From an uncultured virus (IMG/VR IMGVR_UViG_3300009376_000008) (lineage: Duplodnaviria > Heunggongvirae > Uroviricota > Caudoviricetes): a stretch of DNA of 64,000 nucleotides. The stretch lies in IMG/VR virus record IMGVR_UViG_3300009376_000008, one strand, 5' to 3'. Below, in pieces: positions 898-46,127 of this stretch (the stretch's first letter is position 1; each line of letters starts with the position of its first letter). The notes under the pieces were generated by a model. The model saw nothing but the letters and a program-made list of their open reading frames with translations, searched no databases and was not told the origin of the DNA. The position numbers and the translations under genes were made by a program.

Positions 898-1877
898 GAA
901 TAATTCCTGATAAGAACTTCTACTGCTTTTGAACCGTCTCCTAGATTATTTCTTCCAGCCGTATACTGGGTTCTAAAATAACGGCAATTCCAGGAATCAT
1001 CAAACTTATCAGCAAACCACCCTTCGTTGATAGTCATTCCTAAAAATTTTACTTCATTAAAATCTTGATTCAAAGACTCTCTATTGCTCAATGCACACCA
1101 AGAACCAGCACGGGAAGCATCTTTTAAGAATTCGATTAAACGAACTTGATCATCTTCAGTAAATCCTGGCACACGAGTAGACTTATATTTTGCAAATGAC
1201 TTCCGATACGGAGGATCTGCATAAAACCAAGACCCTTCTCCGAAATATGCTTGGGTTTTTTCAAAATCCTGATCCATTATAACACACGTATCAAGAAACT
1301 TCGAAAATGACTTAACGCTTTCAATATCAAAAAGCCTCCCGTTAGGTTTCCATGTCATCAATCCTGCTGGGCTAGCATAGCGATAATTGAAATTTTTACT
1401 GGTCTGCCAAATTCCATTAAATCCAGTTTGCAGCATATAAAGAAGTGCCGCGGCATGTTCAATAGGGTTCATAGAATCTGGGTTTAACGCGTATCTATTC
1501 CTAAGGTCATAGTAGTGTCTTTTTCTACTATCAACATTTGAAAAGTTGGCATATGCATTTACATGCTTAAGGTATTCTTTCTCAAACATCGCGTAGGTCG
1601 GAGACTGCATGTATCGGAACATATTCATTAATTCAGCACACGAGTCATTTAATACTATAACGGCATCTGGGTAATTCTTTCTTACCCATTTACTAATGCA
1701 GCCTGACCCTGCAAAGACATCAACAAAAATGTTAACATCAGAATTAGGAAAGAAACCAGAGTGATTGTACCTGGCAAACATCCGGTCTTTCCCGCCAGCC
1801 CATTTAAAAGGAGGACGAGTGCCCTTTAATCGTAATTCAGTCGGTCCATTCGACTTCGTAATATCCCATGTCTTCAT
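894..1877 (-). CDS. Dam/D12-class N6-adenine DNA methyltransferase
   Basis: PPFKWAGGK, DVFAGSG (SAM binding), LND, FNG and FYADPPY catalytic motif. Confidence 0.88.
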   Translation of the reverse strand: MKTWDITKSNGPTELRLKGTRPPFKWAGGKDRMFARYNHSGFFPNSDVNIFVDVFAGSGCISKWVRKNYPDAVIVLNDSCAELMNMFRYMQSPTYAMFEKEYLKHVNAYANFSNVDSRKRHYYDLRNRYALNPDSMNPIEHAAALLYMLQTGFNGIWQTSKNFNYRYASPAGLMTWKPNGRLFDIESVKSFSKFLDTCVIMDQDFEKTQAYFGEGSWFYADPPYRKSFAKYKSTRVPGFTEDDQVRLIEFLKDASRAGSWCALSNRESLNQDFNEVKFLGMTINEGWFADKFDDSWNCRYFRTQYTAGRNNLGDGSKAVEVLIRNYS

Positions 1878-2907
1878 CTACTGTAGTCTCCACAATGAGT
1901 TTTGCCACAGCGTACGGGTCACAATTGGAGGCTGGGCGTCTATCTTCAATATAACCTTTCCAGCCGTTTTGTTCAACACTATTTGGAATCCTTACAGATG
2001 CGCCACGATCACCGACACCCCAAGTAAACTTATCGATATGTTGCGTTTCGTGTTCTCCAGTTAGGCGTCGGTCGTTCCCTTCACCATAGCCTCTTATGTG
2101 GTCTTGGTGATTATATCTCATTTTTTCCATAAGGCTTTCAAATCTTACTTTGTTCCCAGAGTCATTTCGCATCCAAGATGTTGAAAAATTTGTATGACAA
2201 CCAGATCCATTCCAGTCTCCCTGAACTGGTTTTGGGTTCAGGTCAATATCCCAATTGTATTCTTCTGCTAATCGATAAAGAACGTATCGACTTATCCATA
2301 AATCATCACAAGCCTTAAGGGTATCCGTGCTAAAACACTGATACTCCCATTGGCTAATAGCAACTTCAGCATTTGTTCCAGTTAGTTTAATCCCCATTTT
2401 CAAACACTTCGTGAGGTGCTGTTCTACTAGTTTTCTACCGATTACTTGATTTCCGCCGACGCCGCAATAATAAAGTCCTTGAGGCTGTGGCAAAAATCCT
2501 TCCACAGGAAAACCAAGTGGTCGGTACCCATTGGTAATAAAGTATTCTTGCTCAAATCCCCACCAGAATTCTTCAGAAGAATATTTCTTATTTGAGTCCC
2601 GAAGCTTAGCTCTTGAATTACTTTCGTGAGGCGTTCCATTATTATTGTAAACTTCGCATAATACTAAAAAATGGTTAGGATTCCACTTATAAGCTCTTGC
2701 AGGTTTTAAAATTAATTCCGAATTGTGCCCTGGTGCTTGCTTTGTAGAGCTACCATCGAAATTCCAATCTGGCAAAGATTTCGTATCAGGCATACCTGCA
2801 GTATCCATGGAAATAGTAGACTCTTTTTTGACAGTTATTTTGCTTCTTAGGTTAGAGGTCTTATAGCCATCCAACCAAACGTATTCTAGTAAAATATCGT
2901 TATTCAT
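1837..2907 (-). CDS. glnII: Glutamine synthetase type II (GSII)
   Basis: LEYVWLDG, LRSK, WNFDGSST, GFEQEY, NAEV, QWEYQ, PKPVQGDWNGSGCHTNFS, RLTGEHET, RGASVRIP and YIEDRRPASNCDPY; the 356 aa size fits GSII. Confidence 0.93.
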   Translation of the reverse strand: MNNDILLEYVWLDGYKTSNLRSKITVKKESTISMDTAGMPDTKSLPDWNFDGSSTKQAPGHNSELILKPARAYKWNPNHFLVLCEVYNNNGTPHESNSRAKLRDSNKKYSSEEFWWGFEQEYFITNGYRPLGFPVEGFLPQPQGLYYCGVGGNQVIGRKLVEQHLTKCLKMGIKLTGTNAEVAISQWEYQCFSTDTLKACDDLWISRYVLYRLAEEYNWDIDLNPKPVQGDWNGSGCHTNFSTSWMRNDSGNKVRFESLMEKMRYNHQDHIRGYGEGNDRRLTGEHETQHIDKFTWGVGDRGASVRIPNSVEQNGWKGYIEDRRPASNCDPYAVAKLIVETTVDEDMGYYEVEWTD

Positions 2908-13765: not shown

Positions 13766-14569
13766 CTAGAGATCCATATCTTCCAGATCGGCAAAAGCAT
13801 CATCAATGTCTGTATAAGTCTTTTTCGACTTATCCGTAGTACCGGTTTTGGAGGGGGTACTGTTTCGATGATTTGTGTTTTCCGTCACCGTATTGTCTCC
13901 AGTAGGTTCATCTTCACCGTTCAACCAATTATTAACAATGGCTTCAAGCTCGTCATAAGACTTCAGGGTAAAGATCTCATCAAGATCTGGGAAAGCATCT
14001 GATGCAGTCCATCCCTTAACTTGATCAGCTGTCCCAAGCGAAGACTCCTTAGGCCGAGGCCTAATGTCGGTCGTTGCATACATGCGGCCCGGCTGCTTTG
14101 TGCATACCACCTTGATGTCATGACCACTACTGACATCAGTGATGTCGCCATAATCTGGATCCATAATAATATTCAACAAACTTTGGTAAACAGTTTTTCC
14201 GAAAGCCCAAAGACGGACCCCTTCACTCTCTTCACCTCTAACGATAACAGCTGCGTAAGTACGCATCTTAGGATACAGCTTCTTAGCCATTTCATAAGCT
14301 TCCTTTGTACCTTCATCCCGAAGCTTGTTGATTAGCTCCTGAATGGGATCAGGCTTCCCAAACTGATTGGGTGTTAGAAGCCCAGGGTTATTCCCAATGC
14401 CATAATAAAACCATCGCTCCTTAAATGGGTTCCCGTCATTGTTGGGAATTCCAATAATTCGAACGTTGTAGGTTTCACCTTCTTGCGGTCGCCACATGGC
14501 GCGACGCTTATTATTGACACCAGAAAGCTGGTTAAGCTTTTTGCGAATCGCATCAAAATCAATAGCCAT
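13766..14569 (-). CDS. Single-stranded DNA-binding protein (T4 gp32-like)
   Basis: WRP...VRII, NPF, VIVRGEE..GVRLWAFGKTVY, DYGDITD...GHDI, acidic C-terminal tail (DDAFADLEDMDL). Confidence 0.85.
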   Translation of the reverse strand: MAIDFDAIRKKLNQLSGVNNKRRAMWRPQEGETYNVRIIGIPNNDGNPFKERWFYYGIGNNPGLLTPNQFGKPDPIQELINKLRDEGTKEAYEMAKKLYPKMRTYAAVIVRGEESEGVRLWAFGKTVYQSLLNIIMDPDYGDITDVSSGHDIKVVCTKQPGRMYATTDIRPRPKESSLGTADQVKGWTASDAFPDLDEIFTLKSYDELEAIVNNWLNGEDEPTGDNTVTENTNHRNSTPSKTGTTDKSKKTYTDIDDAFADLEDMDL

Positions 14570-42764: not shown

Positions 42765-42821
42765 TGGGCTCCTCCATGTGTGAACTAATCAGTTAATAAT
42801 TATGCGCTTGGAAGGCAAAGT

Positions 42822-42861
42822 AAAATAAAAATACCGCCAACCCCATAAGAGAAGGCGGTAT
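42822..42861 (-). terminator. Rho-independent terminator
   Basis: AUACCGCC...GGCGGUAU stem followed by UUUUAUUUU. Confidence 0.8.
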
Positions 42862-42888
42862 CAATATTCTTAAAAACCAAGCAAAGTA

Positions 42889-43404
42889 TTATGCTACGTT
42901 AAGACCGCCAGTATTAAGAGCTAGTCCATCAATAACATCATGAACAAGCCATCCGGTAGCGGCTGTTGTAGAAATACACGTAATCGAAAAAGCTGTTCCC
43001 AAAATAGCGTTAGCATCAAAGCCAATTGAGTCATAAGCCTGAGAAGCCGCTGTATTATCGCCATCACCCTTTGGTACGACGGCTAAAATCTTATCAGAAG
43101 ATGCTCCCAGAACATTCATGTCCTGACCGACTGTTGCAATTGCAACAAAAGTATAAGTGCAGCCAACTGTAGCTGTCGCAAGAGCTGGAAGCGTAACTGT
43201 TTGTGTTCCTGTAGTTAACGCGGGGACGGTGAAGATAGTTCCTGATTCTGTAACCAGAAGATCTCCTCTGATTATCGTAGCAGCGCCTGCATCAGATAGC
43301 GCGACGACTGGACGCTTATAACTTAAGCTCCCACCAGTCAAGGCGAGGTTGGATCCGGACTCCTGATAAAGCCCCTTTGTTGTCGAATAATTGACCTTAG
43401 GCAT
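42889..43404 (-). CDS. Probable virion decoration/structural protein
   Basis: True start probably MPKVNY at 43404 (AAAGGAGA SD); T/A/G-rich beta protein with VTLPA...G.TYTF motif. Confidence 0.65.
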   Translation of the reverse strand: MPKVNYSTTKGLYQESGSNLALTGGSLSYKRPVVALSDAGAATIIRGDLLVTESGTIFTVPALTTGTQTVTLPALATATVGCTYTFVAIATVGQDMNVLGASSDKILAVVPKGDGDNTAASQAYDSIGFDANAILGTAFSITCISTTAATGWLVHDVIDGLALNTGGLNVA

Positions 43405-43497
43405 AATTTTTCTCCTTTGTTGGTTAGAGGTACTTGTCCACATGCTTCCGATGCTAACGTGTGGGGACCGCCATTATGCATGCACCGGGCTTGACTA
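43405..43497 (-). ncRNA. Candidate structured 5' leader RNA (possible double pseudoknot)
   Basis: GC-rich ~90-nt leader between a late promoter motif (43498-43504) and the SD; complementary segments CCGGUGC/GCAUCGG, UAAUG/CGUUA, AUGC/GCAU and GUCC/GGAC or CCAC/GUGG. Confidence 0.45.
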
Positions 43498-43525
43498 TAA
43501 GTATTAGATAGCTGTATCAATCGCC

Positions 43526-44143
43526 TTATTTTTTTATTCTCACGGATGCATACATCAAAGCAGTAGCTTGCCAAACATGGTATGGTGCTAAAAGCGGAGG
43601 TAATTCTTCGATTTTGGGAGGATACATCTCAAAGATCTCTGTCTCTTTATCTCCCATCATACCACCTTTTTCTTTGATCTTAGTAAGCTTCCACTGGGGT
43701 ACATAACGAATTTGACCCCATGCGGTTTTTTCGCCCTTGCTTATCTCACGTCCCTTTTCATCATACAGCTTAACAGATATGGTAGAATACTTATCTCCTA
43801 CGTGAACGAACGTTCTAAGCGTCCAGTGGCCATTCTGGACACCACAAAAGAGGGCATCCTTAATATAGTCGCAGCCCTCGTGTAAAAACCTTATGTTGTC
43901 TTTGTTATAAACATGGATCTCTTTTTTAAATCCGTATGCGGAACGGCTAGCTAGTGAATTTTCTAATCCACCGACACTACTTCCATAATGATGAACCAAG
44001 TGGTTCAACTGTTCCGATGTCCCTCGGCCGGTATTCATTGAAACTTCTGAAATTGAAACATAAATAACAAGCGGCTCTTCTGCATAAGCATGTTGCGGAG
44101 TAGCAACTAACGCAACTAAACATAATAAAAACTTTCTAAACAT
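43526..44143 (-). CDS. Hypothetical exported protein with Sec signal peptide
   Basis: MFRKFLLCLVALVATPQHAYA-EE (n/h/c regions, AxA site); GAGGTG SD; late motif at 44161-44167. Confidence 0.7.
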   Translation of the reverse strand: MFRKFLLCLVALVATPQHAYAEEPLVIYVSISEVSMNTGRGTSEQLNHLVHHYGSSVGGLENSLASRSAYGFKKEIHVYNKDNIRFLHEGCDYIKDALFCGVQNGHWTLRTFVHVGDKYSTISVKLYDEKGREISKGEKTAWGQIRYVPQWKLTKIKEKGGMMGDKETEIFEMYPPKIEELPPLLAPYHVWQATALMYASVRIKK

Positions 44144-44231: not shown

Positions 44232-46127
44232 TTAGATGATGTTAAGATCTCTAACCGTGACCGTACCGTAGAAGTCAGACCGAACCATCTTCTTACCGTA
44301 CCGAGTCATCACGCCCTTGCGGGGTGTGAAGTCTTCGGGAGCGAAGATAGTAGGAGTGACGATCAGAGGCACGTAAGGCGCATAGACGTATCCTGTCTCG
44401 AGGTAAGAACCTCCCTTATAGCCAACAAGAACCTTGTTGCGGGGGAAGTATGGATCCTTGTAGACCGTGAAACGGTTACTAAGGTTACCAACACGCTCGG
44501 CTCCAACAGTCATTGGAGAACCAACCTGTCCGTCACCGTCGATGCTATAAGTAGGCTTATAGAGGACGGAAGACTCAAGGATTGTCGCAACATCAGGGCC
44601 GACGACGCAGAAGTTGGCAGAGCCACGCAGTGTCTTACGGTGAATGGTGTTAGCAACATCGATAATGGTCTCAACAAGAGTCTCGTACCATTCGCGGACC
44701 GTACCAGTGAAGGCAGGGCCAGGACGAAGAGTATCAGTTCTCTGAATCTCCTTACCGGTTTCCTTGTTGACGAACTTACCAGGTGCACGACTCCAGTAGA
44801 AGTTAGCACCGTTGGCCTGTGTGAGAAGGTCATTGAGAATCTCACGGTCAAGCTCAAGAGCAATCTGCTCTGAGAGGATTTGAGTAAGCTCAACCTCAGC
44901 GTCAAGGCTGTGATAAGCGTTCAAGTCCTGTGCGAGTTCTGGGGACCAACGAGCACGCAGCTTTCTGGTTACCGCTGTAACCGAGATGCTCTCGATCTTG
45001 ATGTCAATCTCAGGGATGACAGGAGCTGCAGTACCACCAGATCCATCGGAAACAGCGAAGCTAGATTCGAAGGAAGGAATAGTGAGTGCATCACCAGTCG
45101 TTGAGTTAACGTCAAGCTTAGCGGACTGAACACCTGACAGACCATACTTGGAAGGTCCAGGAACAATAGTTCCACCGTCCTTAATAAGAACAGTCAAGAT
45201 GTGAGTTCCGTTAAGAGGATCATCTACGAACGCAGGAGTGTTACCTCTTACCCAGTTACCACGCTTGTTAAGACGACGGATGTTATAAACATCTTTACCG
45301 CCCTGTAGATTAATATCATAAGGATCGGTAACAGTTCCAACACCTGTGCCAACGCCATTGTCGACAACCGCAATGTCTTTGATCATTGTGATGTCGCAAG
45401 GCTCACCACTGGAACCTGTAAGGTCGCCAACAGGGAAAACTGCGAAGGCAAGCGAGTCACCGCCATCAACAAGATCGGCAAGAACCGGATCAAACTGGAG
45501 GTGTCGACCTGTGGAACCAGTAATCTGGCCAGAAGCCGAGATAATAGAACCAGAAGACCATGCACCAGCATCGGTAAAGATACCCCAGTGAAGACAAGGC
45601 ATTGCTGTATTGGACCAGTGCTTTCTGGAATAACCAGAACCAGCTAAGTCATACTGACCGCCGACACCTAAAGAGCCTGTGCGAATGTCCTTACCGGAAG
45701 GGCTATTATAAATAGACCCGCCCTGTGTGTAAGTACCGTCACCAGACTTTACGCCACCAACTTCGGTACCATAAGTGTAGTCAAGGTAAAAGAGCAGGCC
45801 AGAGGGCAAGCTCATAGGCTGAATAGAAACCAGGTCGTTTGCCACAAGGCCGCCGAAGACTCGACGAACGATTGGGAAAGCGATATTCTGGAAACCGCGA
45901 ACATCACCAGAGGCAGCTGTGCCACTGGATGTGCCAAGAGTGTTGAATTCGCGAAGAAGCTGGGCAGCTTGATTCTCAAGCATAACAGCCATATTCTCAC
46001 GATTCTGACCCTCGAGGCCACGAAGTAGACCAGTTCGGTTCCACTTCTCTGTGAGTTGACGATATTGGGACCCCATGTGTCTCTGGCGGATACCCTCAGT
46101 CAACTGATTTAGTGTAAACTTAGACAT
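44232..46127 (-). CDS. Major capsid protein (T4 gp23-like)
   Basis: LENQ, FPIVRRVF, VSIQPM..PSGL.FYL, TRKLRARWSPELAQDL.AYH..DAE.EL, EIL, YAPYVPL, FTPRKGVMTRYG. Confidence 0.96.
   Translation of the reverse strand: MSKFTLNQLTEGIRQRHMGSQYRQLTEKWNRTGLLRGLEGQNRENMAVMLENQAAQLLREFNTLGTSSGTAASGDVRGFQNIAFPIVRRVFGGLVANDLVSIQPMSLPSGLLFYLDYTYGTEVGGVKSGDGTYTQGGSIYNSPSGKDIRTGSLGVGGQYDLAGSGYSRKHWSNTAMPCLHWGIFTDAGAWSSGSIISASGQITGSTGRHLQFDPVLADLVDGGDSLAFAVFPVGDLTGSSGEPCDITMIKDIAVVDNGVGTGVGTVTDPYDINLQGGKDVYNIRRLNKRGNWVRGNTPAFVDDPLNGTHILTVLIKDGGTIVPGPSKYGLSGVQSAKLDVNSTTGDALTIPSFESSFAVSDGSGGTAAPVIPEIDIKIESISVTAVTRKLRARWSPELAQDLNAYHSLDAEVELTQILSEQIALELDREILNDLLTQANGANFYWSRAPGKFVNKETGKEIQRTDTLRPGPAFTGTVREWYETLVETIIDVANTIHRKTLRGSANFCVVGPDVATILESSVLYKPTYSIDGDGQVGSPMTVGAERVGNLSNRFTVYKDPYFPRNKVLVGYKGGSYLETGYVYAPYVPLIVTPTIFAPEDFTPRKGVMTRYGKKMVRSDFYGTVTVRDLNII

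Follow-up and report, generated by a model that had tools for sequence, protein, structure and literature searches.

The stretch that precedes a small late gene in an uncultured T4-like phage is, judging from the comparison of its homologues, a real and conserved structured leader RNA, with a conservation far above chance. Our best reading, to which we assign a probability of roughly 0.6, is that this leader (positions 43492–43401, minus strand, of the 64,000-nt stretch of viral DNA that was analysed, hereafter the window) would serve as a gate on translation, or as an operator, for a late operon of virion-appendage genes in a marine T4-like phage, and that it would represent the complete 5' untranslated leader of a late transcription unit. 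The RNA family, its phage context, and an HDV-like architecture devoid of the catalytic residues are new; the kind of element, i.e., a leader whose pseudoknot governs initiation, is already known.

The window belongs to a T4-like phage according to the proteins that it encodes (portal, protease, gp23, sheath, baseplate and gp32). The head genes include a gp20-type portal, an S77 prohead protease and a gp23-type capsid protein, which is approximately 45% identical to those of its nearest cultured relatives, Flavobacterium phage immuto and Microcystis phage Mel-JY01; a tail sheath, a baseplate protein, a RecA/UvsX-like protein and a T4-type terminase are also encoded. The sequencing runs that contain DNA of the window are labelled as marine or seawater metagenomes, and at least half of the sampled words were present in 5 of 20 rows; no RNA data set was among the runs listed. 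At 1837–2904 (minus strand) the phage encodes a glutamine-synthetase-like protein (Pfam Gln-synt_C and Gln-synt_N), whose gene adjoins a thioesterase and two DNA methyltransferases. The genes and signals relevant to the leader are the following:

13766–14566: gp32 homologue of the window
44232–46127: capsid gene, first in the local order, ahead of the 205-aa ORF
44210–44183: terminator of the capsid gene, from the consensus terminator scan
43526–44143, minus strand: 205-aa ORF that separates the capsid gene from the leader; its N-terminus resembles a signal peptide, and it has a late motif of its own
43498–43504, minus strand: ATACTTA, a TATA motif like that of late promoters, separated by 93 nt from the ATG at 43404
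42889–43404, minus strand: 171-aa ORF with a strong Shine-Dalgarno sequence and the N-terminal motif MPKVxYxxxKGLxQxxG
42820–42865, minus strand: inverted repeat followed by a T-run, terminator-like, 3' of the 171-aa ORF, read by eye
42803: next late motif, after the inverted repeat and T-run

The late motif ATA[AC]TTA is found ahead of about 11 late genes on the minus strand of the window, with 17–32 nt between the motif and the start codon, in contrast with the 93 nt that precede the ATG at 43404. The leader is also rich in G+C, with 56% in a core of 62 nt versus approximately 42% for the window; the original prediction had called attention to both the atypically long gap and the unusual composition, and it was right in both. 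The inverted repeat at 42820–42865 was not listed by the consensus terminator scan because its loop is too long for the rule used in the scan. Since the 171-aa ORF has its own late motif and a terminator-like repeat behind it, the leader would serve a transcription unit of a single gene. The 205-aa ORF has no Pfam or PHROG family and looks like an insertion, because the capsid gene directly precedes the leader in the four relatives examined (L005, L088, L093 and L019).

The set of leaders was assembled from the loci of homologues of the 171-aa protein and from pattern scans of IMG/VR. It comprises 56 distinct full leaders, all of them in AT-rich marine phage contigs; a few more, e.g., that of L093, were dropped by the filters and are outside this number. 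The element is kept upstream of relatives whose proteins are 46–77% identical to that of the window. Two alignments were used: A2, which contains 44 distinct elements, and A3, a later alignment of the family; in both, the element of the window aligns with the subtype C element of L181. A covariance model of P1 and P2 built from 44 sequences (R1) gave a single match in the window, with a score of 64.7 bits that is so by construction, given that the window's element is among the 44 building sequences; the next best match had E > 2. One match was also obtained in each of four records of 5.7, 32, 133 and 273 kb. Neither a second copy of the element, sought with R1, nor a second MPKV-type gene was found in the window. 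From 5' to 3', the parts of the leader are:

43489–43492, minus strand: unpaired 5' AAGC (consensus ARGC), with the predicted +1 at the A in 43492; bases A3, G5 and C6 are invariant in alignment A3
43482–43488, minus strand: 5' strand of P1, CCGGUGC, from covariation and RNAalifold
43473–43479, minus strand: putative 5' strand of PK2, GCAUAAU, in the internal loop J1/2 and complementary to AUUAUGC
43469–43473, minus strand: 5' strand of P2, UGGCG, from covariation
43460–43468, minus strand: loop of P2, GUCCCCACA, which holds the 5' strand of PK1, CCAC, at 43464–43461
43455–43459, minus strand: 3' strand of P2, CGUUA, from covariation
43448–43454, minus strand: 3' strand of P1, GCAUCGG, from covariation
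43442–43447, minus strand: linker AAGCAU (family consensus AAKCWU), with A, A, C and U invariant
43438–43441, minus strand: 3' strand of PK1, GUGG, with the covarying column 34:56
43434–43437, minus strand: ACAA conserved 3' of PK1, from the alignments
43412–43429, minus strand: weak hairpin of CUCU (43429–43426) with the Shine-Dalgarno GGAG (43415–43412), from a predicted fold
43401–43407, minus strand: putative 3' strand of PK2, AUUAUGC, which contains the start codon (43404–43402)

Comparison across the family establishes the helices P1 and P2 and the first pseudoknot, PK1. In the tested columns of A2 (7–13/42–48 for P1, 23–28/36–41 for P2 and 32–35/55–58 for PK1), 95% of the cells of the 44 elements are paired versus 76% after shuffling, and none of 500 shuffles reached 95%; in slid controls the value was 20–37%. 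P1, proposed from the start as CCGGUGC/GCAUCGG, is a 7-bp helix with 99% of its cells paired and changes on both sides in five of its seven pairs. P2 has 4–5 bp and changes on both sides in four of six pairs, and the register that covaries is UGGCG/CGUUA; the nested stem UAAUG/CGUUA originally suggested in its place is paired in 40% of the cells and has to be abandoned. RNAalifold, unaided, recovered P1 and 3 bp of P2. In PK1, the CCRC of the hairpin loop pairs with a downstream GYGG, and the variable pair (column 34:56) is A:U in 26 and G:C in 18 of the 44 elements, and broken in none. The first search pattern fixed parts of both PK1 strands, and for this reason the scan was repeated with the 3' strand and the variable loop base free. 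This rescan returned 50 distinct matches with at least six of the seven P1 pairs, i.e., 39 real members and 11 GC-rich chance matches; in all 39 members the sequence is GNGG, and N is the complement of the loop base (A:U in 22 and G:C in 17). A pseudoknot of the loop with GUGGAC had been anticipated, and only its 4-bp core CCAC:GUGG, kept in the 39 members, is borne out. Approximately 17 unpaired bases are conserved as well, namely the 5' ARGC, the ACC of the loop, the linker AAKCWU and the ACAA that follows PK1, which suggests a specific tertiary fold or a binding partner.

The support for the fold is comparative and not thermodynamic, since folding with nested pairs was no better than for shuffled sequences: the 116-nt leader stretch of the window gave −20 kcal/mol and z = +0.86, in a calculation that ignores pseudoknots. 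This unremarkable z-score, together with a reading frame that is open from 43443, would be in line with there being no RNA element at all, the stretch being either a chance GC-rich remnant or part of an N-terminally extended coding sequence that starts at the ATG at 43443. Nevertheless, compensatory changes are observed across 44–56 versions, in relatives the upstream ATG either lies out of frame or has a stop after it, and the conserved N-terminus begins at MPKV behind a strong Shine-Dalgarno sequence; the first two observations refute this explanation, whose probability is close to nil. The codon at 43443, which had been given as a GTG and a conceivable true start, is an ATG; it was rejected as the start because it lies within the conserved RNA of the linker and the 3' strand of PK1 and because relatives do not preserve its frame with respect to the main ORF.

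The original prediction of a novel cis-regulatory structured leader had named two checks, a scan against Rfam and a covariation analysis of the leaders of homologues, and both agree with it. Compensatory changes were found in P1, P2 and PK1, and Rfam 15 gave no match on the element of the window, either at the gathering threshold or at E ≤ 10; the 12 weak matches obtained on nine other loci are all outside the element, and those that resemble the L20 leader are located upstream of it. When two variants of the leader were compared by blastn with 50,697 phage records, only chance matches of 25–27 nt appeared. At the level of titles and abstract openings, no description of the leader motif was found in the literature. 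A catalogue published in 2023 contains about 10,000 candidates for viral structured RNAs (PMC10690425); four 11-nt motif strings were absent from six supplementary files of it, and files 1, 2 and 4 may list the motif.

With respect to the start of the transcript, a TATA-like 7-mer (ATATATA, ATACTTA, ATAATTA and similar) is located exactly 5 nt before the invariant A of ARGC in 52 of the 54 leaders that have enough upstream sequence. The T4 late promoter consists, according to PMC2988020, of a TATA box positioned approximately one turn of the helix before the start. By analogy with this geometry, and from the fixed spacing, the RNA should begin at or next to 43492, which places the predicted +1 some 4 nt before P1. 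An element that starts within 4 nt of the predicted +1 is also what could be seen if the fold were purely structural and acted like a cap, shielding a heavily used late mRNA from 5'-end-dependent decay or cleavage in an AU-rich leader, and perhaps also presenting the ribosome-binding site. This explanation agrees with a gene that is a self-contained unit from promoter to terminator, and with the different long leader of a sister clade (see below), which opens with a covarying 5' hairpin and may mean that this gene generally requires structure at its 5' end. On the other hand, a plain hairpin would suffice for protection, and the pairing of the start codon and the conserved unpaired bases would be left unexplained. 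A purely protective 5' structure is thus a serious rival of the translational gate, even if on balance an unlikely one.

The pairing that would involve the start codon is the second pseudoknot, PK2, which in the window consists of 7 bp between GCAUAAU (43479–43473) and AUUAUGC (43407–43401). In the family, the consensus of the internal loop is (G)CAUAA(U/C) and that of the start region is (A/G)UUAUG(C). The longest contiguous helix has 5–8 bp and overlaps the AUG in 55 of the 56 leaders, L218 being the one without PK2. When the leaders were aligned on AUAA and UUAU, five positions were paired in at least 52 of the 55; at the flanking position 13 leaders have U:A, 18 have C:G, and in the others a mismatch ends the helix, while three variants with a 2-nt insertion before the AUG have U:A where others carry C:G. 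When the AUG was used as the anchor, 298 of the 336 cells of six positions (89%) were paired versus 15–42% when the strands were slid. Helices of at least 5 bp were also common in two null comparisons: 31% of the trials gave one when the internal loops were tried against start regions elsewhere in the window (53 of them), and shuffled loops gave one in 26%. Being nearly invariant in its 3' strand, the short, AU-rich PK2 offers few independent events, and only one of its pairs covaries cleanly. From this comparison, a real PK2 that joins the internal loop to the start codon is probable, though not proven; the near-invariance of the 3' strand could instead reflect the context of initiation or a site for a protein. 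In this regard, RegA-type operators are A/U-rich, unstructured sites in which the AUG is included. Those of T4 quoted in PMC3014915 are AAAAUUAUG-like, and the start region of the leader, AAAUUAUG, resembles them. A match to regA (PF01818) was found neither in 45 ORFs of the window, which is not a whole genome, nor in two related records, of 82% and 53% completeness; this negative result is weak because the control genomes gave no match either.

The presence of two pseudoknots had been foreseen, and their number stands, but the partners of the second are the internal loop and the start codon instead of AUGC:GCAU, which is paired in 61% of the cells and confined to one subtype. Likewise, for the 5' arm to pair instead with GCAUGUG, as proposed, the G of AAGCAU would be required, a position occupied by U or C in other subtypes, and the conformational switch that was built on this pairing lacks conservation to the same extent.

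Downstream of PK1, at a distance of 8–9 nt, a pyrimidine tract is predicted to pair with the Shine-Dalgarno sequence in 46 of the 56 tails; the ten leaders of subtype E do not have this helix because their Shine-Dalgarno sequence directly follows ACAA. In subtype C, UCCU/AGGA alternates with UCAC/GUGA. A weak helix between the tract and the Shine-Dalgarno sequence is, from these alignments, probable.

A gate on initiation is the most economical explanation of the leader because the start codon lies in a helix and the Shine-Dalgarno sequence in a weak hairpin. The 5' domain (P1, P2 and PK1) would fold first and display the internal loop, which would capture the start codon once it is transcribed; the folded leader would then close the ribosome-binding site and in this way gate the initiation of translation. 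The gated gene would be the first of an operon for small virion-appendage proteins with variable C-termini. In the version that we favour, a phage protein, possibly one encoded by the operon itself, would bind the leader as its operator; in a minimal version, the leader would exert a fixed dampening of translation and protect the 5' end of the mRNA. A strong Shine-Dalgarno sequence and a late structural gene sit oddly with repression.

A start codon and a Shine-Dalgarno sequence built into the fold, about 17 invariant or nearly invariant unpaired bases in junctions and loops, and an RNA that is far better conserved than the downstream proteins are features that a riboswitch could also show; the double pseudoknot would then be the aptamer of a metabolite or an ion, and the ligand would stabilise or open the fold around the start codon. 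This possibility seems quite unlikely, given that each record searched has one copy, always before virion-appendage genes and never before metabolic or transport genes, that no Rfam riboswitch family matches, and that a loose pattern scan of prokaryote genomes returned at least 120 loci, of which none among the matches listed looked real. The known translational riboswitches with an H-type pseudoknot, such as preQ1-II, SAM-II, SAM-V and guanidine-III, resemble the leader in their compactness and in having the ribosome-binding region within the fold; unlike them, the leader has no Rfam match and no association with metabolic genes. The association of the element with a single structural operon is the reason for preferring a protein operator to a metabolite switch.

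A handful of bacterial operons, and T4 gene 32, are known to have leaders that control translation by means of a pseudoknot; one such leader is the pseudoknotted translational operator of the E. coli alpha operon, which responds to S4. The operator of rpsO, for S15, is also a pseudoknot, as indicated in PMC3014915. The leader described here is similar to these two in that its pseudoknot includes the initiation region and its fold would govern 30S initiation; its sequence is nevertheless unrelated and its context is a late virion gene of a phage. For T4 gene 32, PMC3014915 places the knot 67 nt upstream, where it nucleates cooperative binding. Both leaders come from T4-type phages and have a 5' pseudoknot followed by an A/U-rich stretch up to the ribosome-binding site; in our case, however, the downstream gene is not gp32 but a fibre/spike-like gene, and the second pseudoknot reaches the AUG. 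It is by analogy with gene 32 and rpsO, as presented in that source (PMC3014915), that we would favour a protein operator.

The strands of the leader follow the order P1a, PK2a, P2a, PK1a, P2b, P1b, linker, PK1b, Shine-Dalgarno hairpin and PK2b. HDV-like ribozymes are nested double pseudoknots with the strand order P1, P2, P3, P1.1 and P4, in which P1 opens with a G·U wobble formed by the G at +1, and the catalytic cytosine is located in J4/2, just 5' of the 3' strand of P2. We take P1 of the leader to correspond to P1 of HDV, PK2 to P2, P2 to P3, PK1 to P1.1 and the Shine-Dalgarno hairpin to P4. Under this assumption the order of the strands maps one-to-one on the HDV-like fold, and the leader shares with these ribozymes, including the minimal and the phage "theta" ones, a P1 of 7 bp and a loop that pairs just after the 3' strand of P1. 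A self-cleaving ribozyme that trims a few 5' nucleotides and leaves an mRNA with a 5'-OH would account for such a topology; this reading is disfavoured because the residues that define HDV are absent, and we consider it very improbable. The first pair of P1 is C:G, and not G·U, in 43 of the 44 elements; there is no conserved C between the Shine-Dalgarno sequence and the 3' strand of PK2, i.e., in the equivalent of J4/2, a stretch that is A-rich and has A or G only in the alignment; a conserved linker of 6 nt separates P1b from PK1b, the P1.1-like helix; the start codon is part of the helix that resembles P2; and no HDV-type Rfam model matched the element of the window or nine other loci at E ≤ 10. 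Furthermore, cleavage would remove only about 4 nt. A different idea, also doubtful, takes the HDV-type double-pseudoknot fold as reused without the canonical catalytic residues: the core would be a new class of ligand-sensing or catalytic RNA, with which T4-like phages of the ocean would switch the production of their variable appendages according to a cellular signal.

The product of the gated gene gives further indications about the operon. The 171-aa protein has 109 homologues in metagenomes and neither a Pfam nor a PHROGs family, and a tblastn search with it against cultured phages gave no match. Its AF2 model has a pLDDT of 83 and matches, with Foldseek, the N-terminus of CBA120 TSP4, the Pa223 capsid spike and the N-termini of fibres; the model thus agrees with a late virion gene downstream of the leader, as had been proposed, and points to a fibre- or spike-like one. 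The ORF that follows the leader starts with MP in 43 of the 56 cases, and with MA (11), MT (1) or MG (1) in the remaining 13. The MP ORFs that were read have the N-terminus MPKVxYTxxKGLxQxxGxG and a variable remainder, and the complete ones encode 108–191 aa; a profile of the protein family of the window matched only 15 of 48 downstream proteins. At the non-MP loci examined, a gene of the MP...KGL type is immediately next in seven of eight, and the sequence of the eighth stops short of the following gene. The 273-kb record shows the order gp23-type capsid gene, leader, small gene and head-tail adaptor; in the 133-kb record the adaptor also follows the leader gene, and the capsid gene is absent among the nine ORFs scanned. 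From the fold matches and the pattern of conservation, we infer that the 171-aa protein is probably a small appendage of the virion, anchored by a conserved part and variable in its outer one.

If this reading is correct, the leader would define a widespread and well-delimited new RNA family in uncultured T4-like phages of the ocean and would control the genes most likely to shape the surface of the virion, with an HDV-like architecture and the masking of the start codon combined in one element. The conservation of unpaired bases points to an interaction partner. Since the leader is small (approximately 90 nt) and its covariation is clear, probing, toeprinting, reporter assays and structural work are practical.

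Some loci carry additional genes next to the leader. In six loci of subtype C (L164, L165, L186, L199, L200 and L240), the gene that separates the leader from the MPKV-type gene encodes a protein of 137–148 aa, rich in Lys, Glu and Pro, with an Arg/Lys-rich N-terminus (MATSRGRKS..KKK) and a C-terminal LSLV. In L216 and L253 the same place is occupied by MAEE proteins of 83–93 aa. Judging from its sequence, a Lys/Glu/Pro-rich protein with a basic N-terminus, encoded beside a structured leader, is a candidate binder. Tandem paralogues of the appendage gene are present in L012–L014, L026, L034, L035, L050, L079 and L192. In the tandem loci found by protein homology, the matched copy lies directly downstream of a paralogue and has only a short plain leader; of the two copies in L192, the first carries the structured leader.

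The genes of relatives outside the family have other long leaders. The sister clade, whose appendage proteins begin with MGTK and whose capsid proteins are 57–64% identical to that of the window, has a different long leader behind ACTTATAG (L002:1313–1430), which is also found in L009, L015–L017, L020, L029, L054, L062, L094, L095 and L100. Its 5' hairpin shows compensatory changes (GUGAAC/GUUCAU, GUGAAUC/GAUUCAU and GCGAGUC/GACUCG), and is followed by a CAUGUU...AACAUG helix around variable hairpins and then by AUUAUAAA(A/U)GGAGGG. More distant homologues (L037–L043 and L051; L041, L048, L069, L070 and L101) have yet another long leader, in which two direct repeats (GTAGTAGCGCATAAAT-like or AGTAGTCACTAAACA-like), approximately 50 nt apart, precede the Shine-Dalgarno sequence.
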